The notes under the pieces: generated by a model
What the model was told of the DNA's origin: nothing
The model's input: only the letters and a program-made list of their open reading frames with translations
The model's database searches: none
Made by a program: the position numbers and the translations under genes
Shown: positions 1,472-11,582 of the stretch, piece after piece
Layout of the letters: every line of letters begins with the position of its first letter
How positions within the stretch are numbered: position 1 is the first letter of the stretch
Assembly: GCA_965541585.1 (NCBI GenBank)
Contig: CBEUCH010000030.1
Location: 1-12,392 of the forward strand
From: an uncultured bacterium
Lineage (GTDB): Bacteria; Zixibacteria; MSB-5A5; UBA10806
Length of the DNA stretch: 12,392 nucleotides
Reading direction: 5' to 3'

Positions 1472-2254
1472 TCAGCTCCCGAATGCAACCCCTATTACGA
1501 TGGTATCGTTAAGCCTGCTCACCGAATTGTATGACACAACCAATGTAATCGCTTTATAAGATAAATCAAGCCGTCCGAAGAAAACATTAGGACGATTCAG
1601 AAGACCTATCTGAATATCGATGGCATCCGAGATATCGATATATTGACCGAAAAGCCATCTGTTTCTATTGCTCTGAACCCTCTTCACGCTCGCGAATAGC
1701 TGGATGCCATTATTGAAAATACGGGATATGCAAGCCCAGGGTTTTGTACCTTTGCCGCCGAAAGTTTCATAATCACTCTTGAGATTAATACCGGATAAAC
1801 CCATAATACCAGTGAACCCCTGATATTTATATGAAAACCTGATACTCAGATCTGCTGAAGAATAATCCCCTGCCTGACCGAAGTCCTCCGTTTGAAGATT
1901 TCCGCTGGCGGCGGAGGAAATAGATTCGGTTATCCTGATCGCAGAGCCGAACGAATATGTATATCTTTTGTAATAGCCGTCCAGCCCGTAGGACCCAAAT
2001 TGGCCGAACAGGCCTGCCCGGCCAATTCCATACCTGACGATGGCATAATTCCAGTCTAACGAGCTGATTCCGTAAGGTTTCGCATGCAGGAATGTCGCCT
2101 CCGGGCCTCTTCGACAAAGCCTGGATGGTTCCAGATTGATGACCCTCGACGAATCCCCGGGAATATCGAATTGCCATAATATCATCTCGTCGAATCCTGA
2201 AGCCAGCAGGTTTGTAGAGTTCATCAAAGCGATTATAAACGCAATATATCTCAT
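1472..2254 (-). CDS. Hypothetical secreted protein, probable outer-membrane beta-barrel (PorV/PorP-like size class)
   Basis: N-terminal signal-like segment (MRYIAFIIALMNSTNLLA), many alternating amphipathic Gly/aromatic strands, and C-terminal ...IVIGVAFGS. It overlaps the upstream gene by 4 bp (ATGA). The family assignment is inference. Confidence 0.6.
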   Translation of the reverse strand: MRYIAFIIALMNSTNLLASGFDEMILWQFDIPGDSSRVINLEPSRLCRRGPEATFLHAKPYGISSLDWNYAIVRYGIGRAGLFGQFGSYGLDGYYKRYTYSFGSAIRITESISSAASGNLQTEDFGQAGDYSSADLSIRFSYKYQGFTGIMGLSGINLKSDYETFGGKGTKPWACISRIFNNGIQLFASVKRVQSNRNRWLFGQYIDISDAIDIQIGLLNRPNVFFGRLDLSYKAITLVVSYNSVSRLNDTIVIGVAFGS

Positions 2255-3111
2255 GGCGCCAGGACCACAGGTATGAATTTGCTACCGGTTTTTTGACCTG
2301 TCAGAAAAAATCCGATGATATACAGACCCGGAGACAACCGTTCGCCGTTGTGGTCACGACCGTCCCACTCAAAACTGCTAACTGCGGCATCGGACTCGTA
2401 ACGAAGATTTCTTATTTTCATAGCAGAGTCATCGAAAACATCAACCGTGATCTCAGTGCCTGCAGGAATGATGATATCAATTGCAAAATTATCATCAAAT
2501 CCGTCTCCGTCGGGAGTAATCAAGCGTGGTATAACGGAAATGCTGAGAACGCCTGCACCGCCTGCAGGGATGGATGAATTGGCTTGACCCGGTGTGGAAC
2601 CATCGGGATCGTAACAATCATGCCAACCGGAAAGATCATCGAAAAGATCATCTCTTTCAACAGAGCGGCCATCATCAGAAGGGGAATCCCAGGAAAAATA
2701 ATCGAGTAGATTACCTGAGGTGTCAGTCAGCGCGATTGATCCCTGGTTATTATTGAGGCCCATTCTAACATCGAAAGCAGGATAATTTTCGAATTCAGAA
2801 TCGCCCCATATGCCTGAGGAATCACCCCAATGTCCCTCAAAGGAATCGGAGCCATCCTCGGGCAATAGCTGACGGGCGAGTATTGCATAGGCACCGGCCT
2901 CCAGATACGAATAAGCCGGCAGGCGAGTCGTATCGGAGCCGGCAATCAACAGGAAATCGTGGAGATCCACAAGCGCATCCTGCCGGTTATAAACCTCCAC
3001 CCATTCGAGCCTGACCCTTCCCGACGGTTCGTTGGATAGGATTTCAGAGATTACAACCTGCCCGTAGGTATTTGCGCTCAACGAGAAGAATATGACAAGA
3101 GTCTTTACCAT
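2251..3111 (-). CDS. Secreted lamin-tail-domain (LTD) protein with C-terminal CHU_C/FlgD-Ig-like domain (type-B T9SS-CTD-like)
   Basis: Signal peptide; LTD motifs VVISEILSN, EWVEVYN, SVER and GSTPGQANS; C-terminal ITPDGDGFDDNF...VFD...WDGRDHNGERLSPGLYI. Confidence 0.8.
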   Translation of the reverse strand: MVKTLVIFFSLSANTYGQVVISEILSNEPSGRVRLEWVEVYNRQDALVDLHDFLLIAGSDTTRLPAYSYLEAGAYAILARQLLPEDGSDSFEGHWGDSSGIWGDSEFENYPAFDVRMGLNNNQGSIALTDTSGNLLDYFSWDSPSDDGRSVERDDLFDDLSGWHDCYDPDGSTPGQANSSIPAGGAGVLSISVIPRLITPDGDGFDDNFAIDIIIPAGTEITVDVFDDSAMKIRNLRYESDAAVSSFEWDGRDHNGERLSPGLYIIGFFLTGQKTGSKFIPVVLAP

Positions 3112-4637
3112 AAGCTTTCAACGACCAGGTACAACGGCCCCAGATCGCCTCTGTAGGAGTCATCCCATCTATAAGTAGCTTTTATGGAAAGAAACTTATC
3201 TATTCGCGTTCTTTCCTCGATAAAATAATCGAAATCTCCCGACAGGTTTCGTCGTGCTCTGCCGCTTATGGAAAAGCGAGACGTAACAGGCATCGAGACG
3301 TACAGGAAATACTTCGATTTATCTTTTTCGATTCGTTCCTGCTCCACCCACAAAGACATCAAAATTCCATATTCGATATGTTTCTGCAGGCTGGCGCCGA
3401 GTTCGACCAGGATGCGCTCGTTTTGTCTGTTATGTCGATCGGCATATCGAGCGATTGCCACCAGATCCGGTATTATCACAGGGCGGCGGGCCTGGATAGA
3501 ATTCTCGATGGCGATTGTCTGGTTGGGCGATTTCTTCCATATCTCGGTGGCGCCCGTAAACTCGATGCGTTCGACCGTGAAGCGTCTCTTAAGGAAAAGT
3601 CCGGTTTCACCTTTCTGGGGCTGCCTGAAAGACAGCTCGAATCGATCATCGCCGAAAGATTCGTAATCCGGGTGGGCAAATCCCGACGACTGCAAATTGA
3701 TAAAAGAATCATCATAATGCCAGAATCTGATATCATATCCGTATCTAAGGGCTTGAGCGCAAAAGCCTATCCCCGACTCTCCATAACCGAACTCCGATAT
3801 CAGTTTCCTGTCATCGCCTTGAATGAAAACGGATCCGGTTCCCAATGTCCTCGAAATATCATCAGATGATAATACCGTACCGGCGGCCGTCAAACCAACC
3901 GTAAAATCGCTAATTCCAATCGAAACGGAAGTGCCCACAAAACTCTTCTTAACATCATTATATTTCTTGATAGAATATATCAGGTTGAAATTATTTTTAT
4001 AGGATACAATCAGACCATTGTAATAGCTGTTATCCGGGAATAAGAACCCCTCCCCACGCCCCCGATCGGATTCATAAGATATCGGCCTGTAATCAAACCT
4101 TCCGATTCCCAGGCCGCAGCCTATACGGCTTGTGAAATTACCCAGCTTAATCCTGTAATCTCCGTGGGCAAAATTGATCGATCTGCGTTCAGTATTCCAG
4201 ACTCCATCCTCCTCTCGTCCCTTGAAGGCAATATCCATATCCCCGGTTGATCTTGTCAGCAGGAGGTATCCCTTATTCTTGCCTTCAAATATCTTTCTAC
4301 CGAATCTCACCCGCGCGGGCAATGCGAAGGATTTTGATGTCGCCGTTTCAGCTTTTAGAAATGATCGAGCATAGCTCTCAGAATAGATCGGGTTACTGAC
4401 CGTCTCTGTCGGAGGGGCTCCCATCGAGGAAACGATATATTCGACCGTATCGGATATCACTGCTCCTTCAGCCAGCTCCCTGTAAAGTTGATAGCTGTTA
4501 TAATCGAAATATCCAGCCCGAAAGAAAGATTCCCAATCCGATTCCGTCTGAATCTTATCGAACCACTGAGCAGTTGCCTGCGGCCCGATCAGTGTAAGAA
4601 TAATAAAGGTTTTTGAGATTAAAAAAAGTCGTCTCAC
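3105..4637 (-). CDS. Hypothetical secreted/outer-membrane protein resembling the barrel part of Bacteroidota 'helix-hairpin-helix domain' (ComEA-like) outer-membrane proteins
   Basis: GTG start and signal peptide ending ATA-Q. Motifs LGNFTSRIGCGLG, WHYDDSFIN and GETGLFL are recognised from memory of that family. The sequence is beta-rich with a terminal W and overlaps the next gene by 7 bp. No clear HhH motif is visible. Confidence 0.55.
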   Translation of the reverse strand: MRRLFLISKTFIILTLIGPQATAQWFDKIQTESDWESFFRAGYFDYNSYQLYRELAEGAVISDTVEYIVSSMGAPPTETVSNPIYSESYARSFLKAETATSKSFALPARVRFGRKIFEGKNKGYLLLTRSTGDMDIAFKGREEDGVWNTERRSINFAHGDYRIKLGNFTSRIGCGLGIGRFDYRPISYESDRGRGEGFLFPDNSYYNGLIVSYKNNFNLIYSIKKYNDVKKSFVGTSVSIGISDFTVGLTAAGTVLSSDDISRTLGTGSVFIQGDDRKLISEFGYGESGIGFCAQALRYGYDIRFWHYDDSFINLQSSGFAHPDYESFGDDRFELSFRQPQKGETGLFLKRRFTVERIEFTGATEIWKKSPNQTIAIENSIQARRPVIIPDLVAIARYADRHNRQNERILVELGASLQKHIEYGILMSLWVEQERIEKDKSKYFLYVSMPVTSRFSISGRARRNLSGDFDYFIEERTRIDKFLSIKATYRWDDSYRGDLGPLYLVVESLW

Positions 4638-4663
4638 CTCAAACCGTATTTATCCAGTTTGCG
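4615..4663. repeat. Direct repeat copy A of the activator-stop/next-gene-start junction
   Basis: Matches 6783-6831 at 46/49 positions. The core TCTCACCTCAAACCGTATTTATCCAGTTTGCG (4632-4663) is identical to 6800-6831. Confidence 0.95.
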
Positions 4664-4716
4664 GTAACTCGGACCGCCTTCTTTCTGTTGCCGCCGGCCT
4701 CGTTAAGTACTCTTAA
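4634..4716 (-). pseudogene. Relic 3' end (Fis HTH) of a sigma54 activator allele
   Basis: The minus strand translates LRVLNEAGGNRKKAVR, then a 25-nt deletion/frameshift, then YRKLDKYGLR*. The intact gene reads IRALDEANGNRKKAARILGIGERTLYRKLDKYGLR* at 6909-6802. Confidence 0.85.
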
Positions 4717-4736
4717 AGCCCTCGGAAAATCAATTC

Positions 4737-4769
4737 AAAAGAGGGGCTACCGAGGTTGCAGCCTCTTTG
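4737..4769 (-). terminator. Putative intrinsic terminator after the IPTL-CTERM gene
   Basis: Minus strand AAAGAGGCTGC-AACCTCG-GTAGCCCCTCTTTT: stem GGCUGC/GUAGCC, extendable with AAAGA/UCUUU, followed by a U-run, about 20 nt after the stop codon. Confidence 0.65.
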
Positions 4770-4790
4770 TTTATTTCTATGGGTGATCCT

Positions 4791-6563
4791 CTATGCGGCC
4801 TTGCTGATTACCGCCTTCCTTCTCCTCACAATCGCAACCGTCCCGATGGCCAACAGTAGCAGCGCCATAATGATCATCCCCCATTCGGAGAGGGTGGGGA
4901 TGTCTTGATGAGGATCGCAAACATCTCCGATACCATCACCGTTGGAATCGGCTTGATCTTCGTTATCAACATATGGACAATTGTCGCAGGCATCGCCATG
5001 GCTGTCATTATCCGAGTTCGTTTGATCAGGATTGTAAACATACGGACAGTTGTCTTCATCGAAGGGAATGCCATCCTCATCAATATCATAGATATCGCCT
5101 CCAAAAGCGCCCATATCGCTTCTTTCCTCACCTAAGCCCCAATCGCAATCGAGAATGTTATCCAGTATCGTAGGATCACCCGCATCGACACATGGGGAAT
5201 CATATGGATTTCCGCAGGTAGTGGACATCAGATGGAAATCGCCGTTTTCGAGATCACGGAAGAGGGGGTCAATATCTATATTCCCCTCGCCTTCCCAGCC
5301 CCCTCGAATATCGCTATATATAATTGCACTTGAAGATAATCCGTCAACATAAATCTCACGATTACCTTGCGCGTCGTTATACCAGATAATGGAATTAGCC
5401 ATTATCAAGCTGGAATACCACCTACAATATATTCCGCCGCCAATGTCGTTGGCCTTATTTTTGGCGATGGTATTGTTCTCGATCGTAGGATTGGATTGAC
5501 TAAAATAAACTCCGCCGCCGTAGTCCGCTGTGTTTCTCACAATCGTATTATTCTTTATTGTTGGAGTCGAATTATTAAGGCAGCATAATCCACCCCCATC
5601 GTGGGCTGAATTTTCAGCGATGAGATTATTAATGATCAACATACCACCGCTAAGAATACCACCGCCACGGTTGACGGCTGAATTCCCTATAACGATGTTG
5701 TTCATAATTGTGCCGTAAGCCGAAATCCCGCCGCCATCAAAGGCCGAATTTCCTATAATCATATTGTCCTTTATTGTTGCATTGCCGTATGTTCCGAATA
5801 TTCCGCCGCCCATAAAGTCGGCTGAATTGTAGGAGATCATATTGTTGATAATAAGACCGTTGCCATAAATCCCGCCGCCCATTCCGCCTTCATCTGGCGA
5901 CAAGGCTGAATTTCCGCTGATAGTATTGCCTGTGATTGTGCCATTGCCATAGATTCCACCACCCCGCCCCGAGGCTGAATTTCCGCTGATTCTATTATTG
6001 GTAATTGTAGGATAGGGATAATTTACACAATAAATTCCTCCCCCGTAATAGGCTACGTTTTCGTTGATAGTGTTATCGATGATCATTGCGTTTGAGTTAG
6101 AGCAATAGATTCCGCCACCCACCCCAATCCCATCAGATCTTGCCTCGTTTTCACGTATGACGTTATTGCTTATCAAAGGATCCGAACTATCGCAATAAAT
6201 CCCGCCGCCCTCGTCATCGTTATATCCACTCCGTATAGTAAAGCCAGTAATAACGGCGGTGCTGTCTTCGCCACTTTCAAACGTGACAACAGAGCCCGAA
6301 GAGTTGCCGTCAATGACTGTTGTCGAGACATATAAGATATCTCCTGTGGTAAGAAATAGCGAGCCGACTGTTATATTATGAGCGTCGAAATTAATATTCT
6401 CCACATATATCCCGGGGTGCACAAGCACCGTGTCGCCATCTATCGAAGCGTCTATACCTTGCTGGATAGTGGAATAATCATCGGGGATGTTGATGATGGT
6501 AGCTGAAACGGGCGAACGGGTAAAAACGACCAACGCAACAGCAAAAATGTATACTTTTTTCAC
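4791..6563 (-). CDS. Cell-surface protein: right-handed parallel beta-helix repeats + TSP type-3 Ca-binding repeats + IPTL-CTERM sorting signal
   Basis: Signal peptide; IPDDYSTIQQGID start; many NxIxxNSA..GGGI repeats; DEDGIPFDEDNCP/DNDSHGDACDNCP/DSNGDGIGDVCD repeats; C-terminal IPTLSEWG + TM helix + RRRK. GTG start with GGGAGG SD at 6574-6569. Confidence 0.9.
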   Translation of the reverse strand: MKKVYIFAVALVVFTRSPVSATIINIPDDYSTIQQGIDASIDGDTVLVHPGIYVENINFDAHNITVGSLFLTTGDILYVSTTVIDGNSSGSVVTFESGEDSTAVITGFTIRSGYNDDEGGGIYCDSSDPLISNNVIRENEARSDGIGVGGGIYCSNSNAMIIDNTINENVAYYGGGIYCVNYPYPTITNNRISGNSASGRGGGIYGNGTITGNTISGNSALSPDEGGMGGGIYGNGLIINNMISYNSADFMGGGIFGTYGNATIKDNMIIGNSAFDGGGISAYGTIMNNIVIGNSAVNRGGGILSGGMLIINNLIAENSAHDGGGLCCLNNSTPTIKNNTIVRNTADYGGGVYFSQSNPTIENNTIAKNKANDIGGGIYCRWYSSLIMANSIIWYNDAQGNREIYVDGLSSSAIIYSDIRGGWEGEGNIDIDPLFRDLENGDFHLMSTTCGNPYDSPCVDAGDPTILDNILDCDWGLGEERSDMGAFGGDIYDIDEDGIPFDEDNCPYVYNPDQTNSDNDSHGDACDNCPYVDNEDQADSNGDGIGDVCDPHQDIPTLSEWGMIIMALLLLAIGTVAIVRRRKAVISKAA

Positions 6564-6594
6564 ACAGTCCTCCCGCTCAATGGAGTCAATAATA

Positions 6595-6622
6595 ATAATA
6601 GGACATTCTCAGGGTTTGTCAA
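6595..6622 (-). promoter_or_regulatory. Putative sigma70 promoter of the IPTL-CTERM gene
   Basis: Minus strand TTGACA (6622-6617), 16 nt, TATTAT (6600-6595), about 30 nt upstream of the start codon. Confidence 0.6.
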
Positions 6623-6733
6623 GAGATTTCTGTTTTAGAGCTTCGCAGGGGAAAGAAATCGGGTCGTGCTCAAATATAGTGGCCTGGAGCCATGATTGCA
6701 AGGCTTTTTCGGGTGAAATAGGTTAGGCTACGC

Positions 6734-6805
6734 TCATTCTGAAGAGGGCATTATGGTGTTTTTTTCGAATATCATTAAAAAAGAGATCGAAAAAAGTCTT
6801 CTCAC
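6734..6805 (-). pseudogene. Relic 5' end of the 510-aa gene (MRRLFSIS..., 23 codons) overlapping the activator stop codon
   Basis: GTG AGA AGA CTT TTT TCG ATC TCT versus GTG AGA CGA CTT TTT TTA ATC TCA at 4637. It has the same GTGA overlap, and similarity ends after 8 codons. Confidence 0.75.
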
Positions 6806-6831
6806 CTCAAACCGTATTTATCCAGTTTGCG
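6783..6831. repeat. Direct repeat copy B of the activator-stop/next-gene-start junction
   Basis: 46/49 identical to 4615-4663, offset 2168 bp. Confidence 0.95.
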
Positions 6832-8235
6832 ATATAATGTTCTCTCGCCTATCCCCAGGATACGAGCCGCCTTCTTTCTATTGCCATTGGCTTCATCAAG
6901 CGCCCTAATCATAAGTTCTTTCTCCGCAGCTTCCATCTTGACGGGGCCGGATCTAAAACCCGCAGATTCTGCGAAGCCACCATTCGTAACCCTTACTCTC
7001 TCCATCTCCCTTTCAATCAGCCGCCGCAGGGAACTGACTTCGCCGGTAAGGGCCATTATTGCCTGCAACATAATTTGATGCTCTGCGGCTTCGGAGGTCC
7101 TCCCCGTTACTACCGGAAGCAACTCGGAACTGGGGCGTCTCTCCCGGACATATTGTTCGAAATCCGACGTCCTTATCCGACCTGACGCGCTGGTGACCGA
7201 AAATGAATCGATGACATTCTTCAACTCTCGCACATTGCCGGGCCATTCGTAGCGATAGAATAAACGCAGCGCCCCGGGTTCAATCGAGAGATTATCGGTT
7301 TTCAGTTCTTTTTTCCTCCGTGCCAGAAAATGAAATGCCAGAGGAGAGACGTCCGGTTTCCTGAGGCTCAGAGCGGGTAAATCTATTGTAACAACGCTTA
7401 AACGGTAATAGAGGTCATCGCGGAAACGGCCGGAGGCAACTTCATCCTGCAGGACCTTATTTGTGGCCGCCAGCAGCCTAAAATCGGCGTTTATCTGAAC
7501 GTTACCCCCGACCCGGGTGAAACTGCGCTGTTCGAGAACCCTCAAGAGTTTGGCTTGAATCTCAAGCGGTATATCGCCGATCTCATCTAAGAATATTATG
7601 CCGTCCGAGGCCTGTTCAAAAGCCCCGATTCTTCTGGAAGTCGCTCCCGTAAAAGCCCCTCTCTCATGGCCGAATAATTCGGATTCGATGATTCCGGGAG
7701 CCAGGGCGGCGACATTTACCGCTATAAACGGGTTACCGGATTGTCCCGATCCCGAATGGATGGCCCTGGCGATGATTTCCTTGCCTGTTCCCGACGGCCC
7801 CGTAATGAGAACATTGACATCGGATGATGCCACTTTCTTTACGGTTCCGGCGGCCTTGATAAGCTCGGCCGAACGGCCTATTATCCCGCACGATCCGAGG
7901 AGCTTCCTATCTCGAACGATCTTCTCAAAAGCCTCCACCACATCCACAGCTTCAACCGGCCAGAATAATTCTTTATCGCAGCTTAAATCCTCGGTAATTC
8001 CGATTGCAGGCATTATAACCACTGCTATAATCGATGGTTTCTCAACATAGGCACGTTCTATAAGCTTCAACGGTCTCATCCCGGAACGCAGATCGAAAAT
8101 TATCCCGTCCGGTTCAGTCTCGTTCAAGACCGAGGCCAGCCTGATTTCATCGGTAAAACTTTGAGCTTCCCGTCCGGGAAGAGATTTCAGCAATTGGTCC
8201 GAAAATGACAGGTCATGCGAAAACAGATAAATCAT
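6802..8235 (-). CDS. Sigma54-dependent Fis-family transcriptional activator (bEBP) with atypical receiver-like N-terminus
   Basis: Walker A GPSGTGKE, ESELFGHERGAFTGA, Walker B IFLDEIG, RDDLYYRL, WPGNVREL, and C-terminal Fis HTH GNRKKAARILGIGERTLYRKL. It overlaps rnr by 4 bp. Confidence 0.93.
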   Translation of the reverse strand: MIYLFSHDLSFSDQLLKSLPGREAQSFTDEIRLASVLNETEPDGIIFDLRSGMRPLKLIERAYVEKPSIIAVVIMPAIGITEDLSCDKELFWPVEAVDVVEAFEKIVRDRKLLGSCGIIGRSAELIKAAGTVKKVASSDVNVLITGPSGTGKEIIARAIHSGSGQSGNPFIAVNVAALAPGIIESELFGHERGAFTGATSRRIGAFEQASDGIIFLDEIGDIPLEIQAKLLRVLEQRSFTRVGGNVQINADFRLLAATNKVLQDEVASGRFRDDLYYRLSVVTIDLPALSLRKPDVSPLAFHFLARRKKELKTDNLSIEPGALRLFYRYEWPGNVRELKNVIDSFSVTSASGRIRTSDFEQYVRERRPSSELLPVVTGRTSEAAEHQIMLQAIMALTGEVSSLRRLIEREMERVRVTNGGFAESAGFRSGPVKMEAAEKELMIRALDEANGNRKKAARILGIGERTLYRKLDKYGLR

Positions 8236-10427: not shown

Positions 10428-10532
10428 GCCAAAACTGCCATTTTGGCAGGAGCTATTTTCTGAGCCAAAATAGATATGTATGATGTGTTGGAATAAATTC
10501 TCCAATTGACCACAGGGGAATATAATAAAAGG

Positions 10533-10563
10533 AATTAACTTGACAAAAACATCTATATTTGCT
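10533..10563 (+). repeat. 31-bp promoter-containing repeat, copy 1
   Basis: AATTAACTTGACAAAAACATCTATATTTGCT, identical to 11451-11481; contains TTGACA at 10540-10545. Confidence 0.9.
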
Positions 10564-10652
10564 TAGATAAAGTGGATTACGTCTACAAAAGCTGGCATCT
10601 GGTTGCGAAGCGAGAATAATCTATAAGTTTTAACCTTAACTGAGGAGTGATC

Positions 10653-11213: not shown

Positions 11214-11450
11214 AAACAGCTTAGCTCAAAATCAGGAGCATCATACAACAAAACAAAATCACAGTTCAATATTCTCAGAGATACGACTGAAGATGTTGAG
11301 AATATTATTTTGGGCGATTTCACTGACACTATAAACCTTTGCTAAAAACTACTCCATCGACTGGTATGTCATCGCCTCCTGCTGCGGGCATGAGACACCG
11401 GCGAACTATGGGGCCGACGTCACTAAGATTATTGCGTAGCCATCAGAAGC

Positions 11451-11486
11451 AATTAACTTGACAAAAACATCTATATTTGCTAATGT
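11451..11486 (+). promoter_or_regulatory. 31-bp repeat copy 2, putative sigma70 promoter with extended -10
   Basis: TTGACA (11458-11463), 17 nt, TAATGT (11481-11486) preceded by TGC. Confidence 0.7.
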
Positions 11487-11582
11487 TAATTAGTCAATGT
11501 CTTCATATAGCCGTGAGGTGGCTGTTGTGCGAGAATAAAAACTCATACGTATGGTTAAAGTATTAAATAAAAAGGAGCGCTT

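Follow-up and report, generated by a model that had tools for sequence, protein, structure and literature searches.

Gene content and features of the locus

The window analysed here, a 12,392-nt stretch that constitutes contig C30 of the genome of an uncultured member of the Zixibacteria (hereafter G000; 3.5 Mb in 40 contigs), encodes on its minus strand, in order, RNase R, a sigma-54 activator, a 590-aa cargo protein, a 510-aa protein, a lamin-tail protein, a 260-aa protein and dGTPase. The junction of the activator gene with the 510-aa gene occurs twice, as copy A (relic plus core, 4716-4615) and copy B (6909-6783), and the cargo unit between the two copies measures 2.1 kb. These features are given below, together with their likeness to the metagenome contig SDBT01002472.1 (hereafter MG), which carries three such junctions.

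6802-8235, minus strand: intact sigma-54 activator gene (477 aa; AAA+ and Fis HTH), downstream of RNase R
6860-6909, minus strand: left part of copy B, activator codons homologous to the relic; probably the native allele here, with third-position divergence at background
6783-6834, minus strand: core of copy B, comprising the last 10 activator codons, a GTGA stop/start overlap and a relic of the 510-aa gene start (MRRLFSIS)
6731-6782, minus strand: right arm of the cassette; arm and leader are 88-89% identical to MG junctions 1 and 2
6628-6730, minus strand: shared leader, with a sigma-70-like promoter (TTGCAA-17-TATATT) at 6701-6673
6564-6627, minus strand: the cargo's own putative promoter (TTGACA-16-TATTAT, 6622-6595) and RBS, common to paralogues on five other G000 contigs
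4791-6563, minus strand: cargo gene for a predicted secreted beta-helix protein of 590 aa with TSP3 repeats and an IPTL-CTERM tail, of a large paralogue family in G000
4745-4763, minus strand: terminator-like hairpin 3' of the cargo gene, a consensus match only
4717-4744, minus strand: end motif of the cassette, which MG junctions 2 and 3 carry at the same position
4667-4716, minus strand: left part of copy A, a dead activator-end relic of MG-type allele followed by a 25-nt deletion; with the end motif, 91-94% identical to the MG relics
4615-4666, minus strand: core of copy A, continuing into the intact start of the 510-aa gene; probable crossover or conversion zone
3105-4637, minus strand: intact, conserved 510-aa gene, first of four downstream host genes

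Neither integrase nor transposase genes, and neither tRNAs nor Rfam families, were found within the window. The 510-aa protein has no Pfam or NCBIfam match, and its Atlas look-alikes carry HHH_3 in part (15%). Together with a lamin-tail/FlgD-Ig protein (2251-3111) and the 260-aa protein (1472-2254), it forms a conserved trio (3105-4637 for the first member), which we take to resemble the type IX secretion-linked operons of Bacteroidota. A consensus scan of 4500-4900 returned no promoter for the downstream operon, and a predicted side effect of the insertion is that the 510-aa gene, uncoupled from the activator, now lies behind a terminator-like hairpin and has no promoter recognizable by consensus. 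At the other end of the unit, the gene-start relic and right arm form a mini-ORF of 23 codons (6805-6734, minus strand) coupled to the activator stop; its counterpart in MG junction 1 is equal in length, with six nonsynonymous and three synonymous codon differences counted by eye, and that in MG junction 2 is frameshifted. Upstream of RNase R, a 59-nt direct repeat (80% identity; 10529-10587 and 11447-11505) with a TTGACA promoter-like core precedes two divergently transcribed accessory ORFs.

Divergence of the two junction copies

The cores of copies A and B agree at 48 of 52 positions (4666-4615 against 6834-6783). Beyond them, 25 nt present in B (6859-6835) are missing from A, and past this gap 30 of 41 positions are identical (4707-4667 against 6900-6860; A reads LRVLNEAGGNRKKAVR and B reads IRALDEANGNRKKAAR), the codon alignment reaching 4716 and 6909. 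A preliminary description of the window, made from its letters alone, had noticed two diverged junction copies and the deletion, and the alignment bears it out: all five synonymous-only codon pairs that it named (AGA/AGG, GAG/GAA, AAC/AAT, CGA/CGT and TAC/TAT) are present, as is MRRLFSIS in copy B against MRRLFLIS, with AGA/CGA and TCT/TCA. Missing from its tally were five nonsynonymous codons that stand beside the synonymous-only ones. The differences are unevenly distributed, with 16 in 50 nt left of the deletion and 1 in 30 nt of the core up to the stop codon (Fisher p=0.002), and the core alleles TTG-AGG and CTT-TTT are common to A and B.

From this pattern, divergence under coding selection had been proposed, with a tally against neutral decay as its check. 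We let B decay at random by the same 16 changes across 26 full codons. At least five synonymous-only codons then arose with P=0.076-0.21, according to transition bias, which is not significant, and at least 10 of the 16 changes fell at third positions with P=0.008. The synonymous-codon count that had been put forward is thus a weak argument for coding selection when taken alone, and the third-position excess is a stronger one.

The site in related genomes

Among 41 genomes searched, 38 possess the 510-aa gene, and the junction was compared across 13 family loci. An activator orthologue lies directly upstream in 12 of these, with its stop and the 510-aa gene's start overlapping, and the site is empty in 11; the locus of the family genome G013 has a scaffold gap at the site and is uninformative. 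Five order-level loci also appear contiguous at the junction. In the congener G001, the activator gene is followed by 37 codons of the 510-aa gene, a foreign 207-aa ORF, a leader of 100 nt that matches window 6730-6628 at 87% identity, and an ATG with which the contig breaks off, before the second junction copy and the cargo.

When metagenome contigs were scanned by pattern, MG alone was recovered; in it, three junction copies delimit two units. Its order is the intact activator, junction 1, a leader, three cargo genes (beta-helix, PKD and one of no assigned family), the end motif, a relic, junction 2, a leader, a PQQ-propeller IPTL-CTERM gene, the end motif, a relic, junction 3 and the intact 510-aa gene. 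These units end where the unit of the window does (6628 and about 4744) but enclose different cargo, and in both MG and G001 the leader runs through an RBS to a cargo ATG. In the middle junction of MG, the end motif is followed by activator relic, core, gene-start relic and leader. Contigs of the sequencing run X1, whose long pieces are about 95% identical to the window, join 4741 to 6628 across other DNA, with 75 nt on the short side, and 4737 to 4456, which amounts to a longer gene-start relic; a third joint, with a 25-nt side, may derive from a second site (X1 joints were taken at 85% likeness, the sequence between them being unread). Another run, X2 (share 0.06), yielded short pieces alone and was left aside. 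Across these sources the gene-start relics vary in length (24, about 112 and about 180 nt), and the activator relics all begin at one identical base.

Inserts occupy three of the four genus lineages examined, plus run X1. Because empty, single and tandem states exist, and unit ends are conserved around unrelated cargo, the junction is a recurrent slot with interchangeable cargo, neither a one-off duplication nor an assembly error. Outside the genus (g1), a junction query over 14 family genomes matched only activator ends; the end motif had one match among genome contigs (L139); and no parent integrative element or phage was found in viral contigs by two patterns and a search with the activator protein.

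Inserts in so many lineages would also follow from a single ancient duplication that arose in the genus ancestor and was passed down vertically, with precise loss in G002 and with DNA-level selection or gene conversion holding the relics similar. Loss by recombination between direct repeats is easy. Against this, divergence between G000 and MG reaches 45% at four-fold sites, yet their non-coding arms remain 88-94% identical (91-94% for the left arm, relic plus end motif, and 88-89% for the right arm plus leader), and the G000 relic is visibly decaying and unconverted towards its own neighbour. Among these hosts, identity in two non-coding stretches used as controls is 58-77%. We consider vertical descent from an ancestral duplication very unlikely.

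Origin of the activator relic

Over its left 50 nt, the relic differs at 16 positions from the activator gene of its own genome, at 4 from the MG activator, at 3-4 from the MG relics and at 8 from each of G001 and G002 (the latter a further congener). The origin in a related lineage that had been proposed from the window alone thereby gains an intact activator of another lineage that lies closer to the relic than the genome's own gene does. The foreign gene start suspected at copy B was likewise recovered, as the tail TCG-ATC-TCT-TTT-TTA-ATG matches the cassette-side relics of MG and not the host gene. Relic and MG alone share the derived state CGA-GT. If the break is explained by one 25-nt deletion, the surrounding 21 nt contain 1 mismatch when the MG allele is taken as the source, compared with 5 for B and 3-5 for the others, and one base (position 9) is common to all three relics and absent from all four intact activators.

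Simple target duplication of the host's own junction with subsequent neutral decay, or an assembly chimera, would be compatible with a synonymous-only count that is not significant by itself. But at the 17 differing sites copy A mostly carries the state of the congeners and copy B mostly a private one; a tree that forces A and B to be sisters is rejected against one joining A to MG (AU p=0.006; 75 columns and 11 rows, unconstrained supports being low); and the architecture is repeated in independent assemblies. The MG layout and the affinity of the relic, whose left part groups with the MG lineage, refute this scarcely credible account, in keeping with the earlier view that the repeat is no simple target-site duplication.

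At third positions, copy A differs from MG at 1 of 26, against a background of 0.375, and the last 105 nt of copy B differ from the three congeners at 11-13 of 35, equal to the operon background of 0.35-0.38. The closeness of relic and MG, the identity of the arms and the background divergence of B together favour a relic that travelled on the cassette from a lineage resembling MG, B being the probable native copy. The activator end is itself conserved among G001, G002 and MG (6 of 35 third positions differ, through conservation or homogenisation), and closeness of the relic to all three is thus partly expected; at half the background rate, that to MG has P=0.03 and that to G001 and G002 is unremarkable. 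As the host phylogeny is star-like (supports 37-71%), the direction of donation is judged from a segment of 50 nt in four lineages.

The opposite polarity has also to be weighed. Under gene-end displacement of the classical kind, copy B and the cargo would have arrived on DNA that anchored by homology in the activator gene, copy A would be the native end thus displaced, and the joint would have been copied from a previous unit; Islander (PMC4383910) and rhs (PMC2935791) provide the textbook cases of this polarity. Copy B holds 11 of the 19 lineage-private changes of the last 105 nt (P=0.004; 1 of 43 control windows is as extreme), although 4 of the 43 reach P<=0.007. Informative sites further make G000 MG-like between about -545 and -260 of the activator, and G001-like thereafter: those shared with MG against G001 number 10 versus 2 in the 260 nt before -260, and then 1 versus 8 (post hoc Fisher p=0.002; permutation P=0.024 for the upstream edge at two of three window sizes and 0.33 at the third). 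Two readings of this upstream tract offer themselves: a patch received from a donor resembling MG, or a native resemblance to MG, in which case B was imported and A displaced. However, the third-position divergence of B equals background, A is nearer to MG (1/26) than the upstream MG-like tract is (26/95, codons 87-182 from the end), the three relics share a position-9 base that the four intact activators lack, and A and B share core alleles. We therefore judge a displaced native end rather unlikely, if the most substantial of the competing accounts.

Proposed mechanism

We lean, with somewhat more belief than doubt, towards an integrase-free cassette that entered from a different species within the genus, its own junction copy providing the homology for recombination; the species exchanging it are probably about 80% identical. 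In such a scheme, one insertion in an MG-like lineage would first have duplicated about 105 nt of the activator end and 24-180 nt of the start of the next gene, keeping both host genes whole. Recombination between the repeats might then free a circle (or a fragment be taken up), with the joint ordered as end motif, activator relic, core, gene-start relic and leader. In a related species, whether its junction was empty or already occupied, the joint would find its homologous partner there. Crossover in the core of about 50 nt would then place the foreign gene start, the cargo and the foreign activator end, flanked by a core on either side, between host activator and host gene. Repetition of the third step would stack units, the stretch enclosed by the shared leader and end motif could receive different cargo, and the relic would finally decay, here by two substitutions and the 25-nt deletion.

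That a circle carrying a homologous junction had integrated was already suggested in the preliminary description. The middle junction of MG displays the predicted joined form; neither a circle nor an empty allele was seen in reads, and a linear double crossover would give the same product. The interpretation given in that description is supported as a whole, the donor being either circular or linear and B probably the native copy. Genes of the ComEC family occur in two of three genus genomes and those of the DprA family in all three, with matches also in most control genomes; their presence allows for DNA uptake and does not show competence.

Homologous recombination is favoured over a fixed crossover because relic lengths vary, core alleles are shared, the affinity switch lies hundreds of bases into the activator gene, and the repeat is longer than usual att identity. 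The common start base of all activator relics speaks against it, being the expectation for a site-specific system. Such a system might have left CIME-like remnants, that is, att-flanked cassettes stacked by a recombinase supplied in trans, with the MG junctions as attL, chimeric attI and attR; this layout fits the accretion scheme set out in PMC5704250. G000 does encode six phage-integrase-family matches elsewhere, two of them probably XerC/XerD (naming inferred), it has recombinase-type palindromes elsewhere, and a 7-of-9 inverted repeat surrounds GATAAATA in the core. Yet no integrase lies within or beside any unit, neither palindrome type is on the window contig, viral contigs gave no match, relic lengths are variable and core alleles shared, and the repeat of about 130 bp exceeds the 8-60 bp that PMC5704250 gives as usual. 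The core inverted repeat was rejected as a recombinase site: in G001, G002 and each of the three junctions of MG it does not reach threshold, and 10 of 158 control windows contain a repeat of its type. We think site-specific stacking of this kind quite improbable. A Xer/dif reading was also discarded, as no convincing dif-like site emerged with a dif consensus.

Other slots and shared cassette ends

Leader and end motif also flank other cargo at a second site, between M23 peptidase and DUF72 genes, in G000 and G001, and paralogous leaders precede other secreted-protein genes in G001. As the shared ends flank different genes elsewhere, cargo has probably been swapped between them. The second site contains three genes of no assigned function in G000 (C26:4989-7411) and an IPTL-CTERM beta-helix gene in G001 (C98:1019-2713); G002 retains only about 170 nt, several outgroups are without an insert, and the end motif reads by eye as the -35 half of TTGATT-17-TAGAAT. 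At L050:661-936 and at L052 (contig C9 of G000), the leader adjoins, divergently, the FMN riboswitch of ribD; in G001 it is followed by the relic of an IPTL-CTERM gene end, and the same relic follows the MG cargo genes.

Self-comparison of G000 yielded 151 nearby direct repeats, and 6 of the 12 inspected duplicate the 3' end of a protein gene around other genes. One of these has a longer relic in G001. Since gene ends are duplicated in this manner elsewhere in the genome, the process would extend beyond the junction locus. At five of the six, alignments are suggestive as to polarity, with few sites, and the sixth had no match in four of four genomes. The duplicated ends, of 40-190 nt and with diverged relics, lie at C9:95605-98688, C6:61277-62480, C6:65254-66658, C26:22129-27494, C2:129289-131739 and C17:38445-43255, and belong by eye to yjbQ-like, nitroreductase-like, response regulator, M3-peptidase-like and GAF protein genes. 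Separately, an 11-7-11 palindrome, in full or half copies, stands just upstream of leader-type promoters (G000 C21:1692, C22:5519 and C18:57928; G001 C179, C71, C98 and C406), its left arm presumably resembling a XerC arm, and a second palindrome, 9-7-9, has about 20 copies on variable contigs.

Comparison with known systems

The locus is a variant of known gene-end displacement: it works like that of rhs loci and type VI secretion (T6SS) arrays, and it looks like the accretion of CIMEs, membership of which is unproven, or like islands of the Islander type, although it does not belong to the integrase-bearing islands. It is probably set apart by the duplication of both gene ends at an overlapped junction, by tandem units without an integrase and by a relic from another species. 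The e14 element at icd is an island that restores its target gene and leaves the displaced fragment behind. Islander describes such islands more generally (PMC4383910). As there, an intact gene and a fragment mark the ends of the insert; unlike those islands, the target is a junction of protein genes, no integrase lies inside, and the polarity of the native copy is probably reversed.

For displacement of rhs C-terminal ends, Jackson et al. 2009 (PMC2935791) propose two-step homologous recombination with a circle that carries a piece of the target gene and variable cargo, and describe tandem gene-end relics of variable length, exchange restricted to related lineages and no dedicated integrase. 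Stranded gene-end fragments likewise lie 3' of the intact gene here, in tandem (one relic in G000, two in MG), and are alleles of another lineage rather than in-place duplicates (AU p=0.006; 16 versus 3-4 differences). Gene-start relics vary in length here (24, about 112 and about 180 nt) and activator relics start at one fixed base, in units that lack an integrase. The target is a sigma-54 activator with a C-terminus that is still homologous, not a polymorphic toxin or Rhs gene, and the locus is therefore not a member of that class. Here the overlapping junction of two core genes has both ends duplicated with host proteins left functional, the variable part consists of whole separate genes behind a shared promoter, and the stranded end is apparently cassette-borne, not a displaced resident tip.

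Arrays of T6SS effector and immunity genes (Kirchberger et al. 2017, PMC5361080) grow by homology-facilitated illegitimate recombination from a homologous upstream anchor, with sequential stacking, and whole arrays later spread by ordinary homologous recombination. Anchor, stacking and later spread as given there have their likeness at the junction; there is no toxin-immunity logic here, and, unlike in those arrays, the illegitimate step would have happened once and not per addition, because all relics share one joint. As in CIMEs, an integrase-less unit lies between direct repeats, MG has an attL/chimeric attI/attR layout (PMC5704250), no integration or transfer genes lie inside, an attB-like site is empty in relatives and accretion is in tandem. 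In contrast to CIMEs, no cognate integrase or parent ICE/IME was found in 14 family genomes and viral contigs, the repeat is about 130 bp and no fixed crossover is evident. An integron array would have an integrase adjoining it, and here none does; the separators are copies of a host-gene junction, and the window has no Rfam match. Nor does the repeat resemble a transposon target-site duplication, at about 130 bp, with diverged alleles and no transposase match. Searches of the open-access literature found no paper on this locus, or pairing Zixibacteria with IPTL-CTERM.

Implications

At present the structure is best described, from comparative genomics, as a scar of known class in an uncultured lineage. 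It belongs to an unusually complete natural series, comprising the empty site, the single unit, the tandem and the cross-species relic, in which accessory genes for surface proteins are added inside a translationally coupled core operon, with both genes unbroken and no visible integrase. The series illustrates that the end left stranded beside a gene is not necessarily the native one pushed aside, which bears on the reading of many genome scars. More speculatively, and with considerable doubt, a RecA-driven economy may operate, in which a leader, a swappable secreted cargo and a junction copy of about 130 bp excise and re-enter, stack in the manner of an integron and cross between species 20% diverged, using several core-gene ends and homogenising host gene ends. 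If such traffic were real, short copies of conserved gene junctions would serve as portable docking sites across species.
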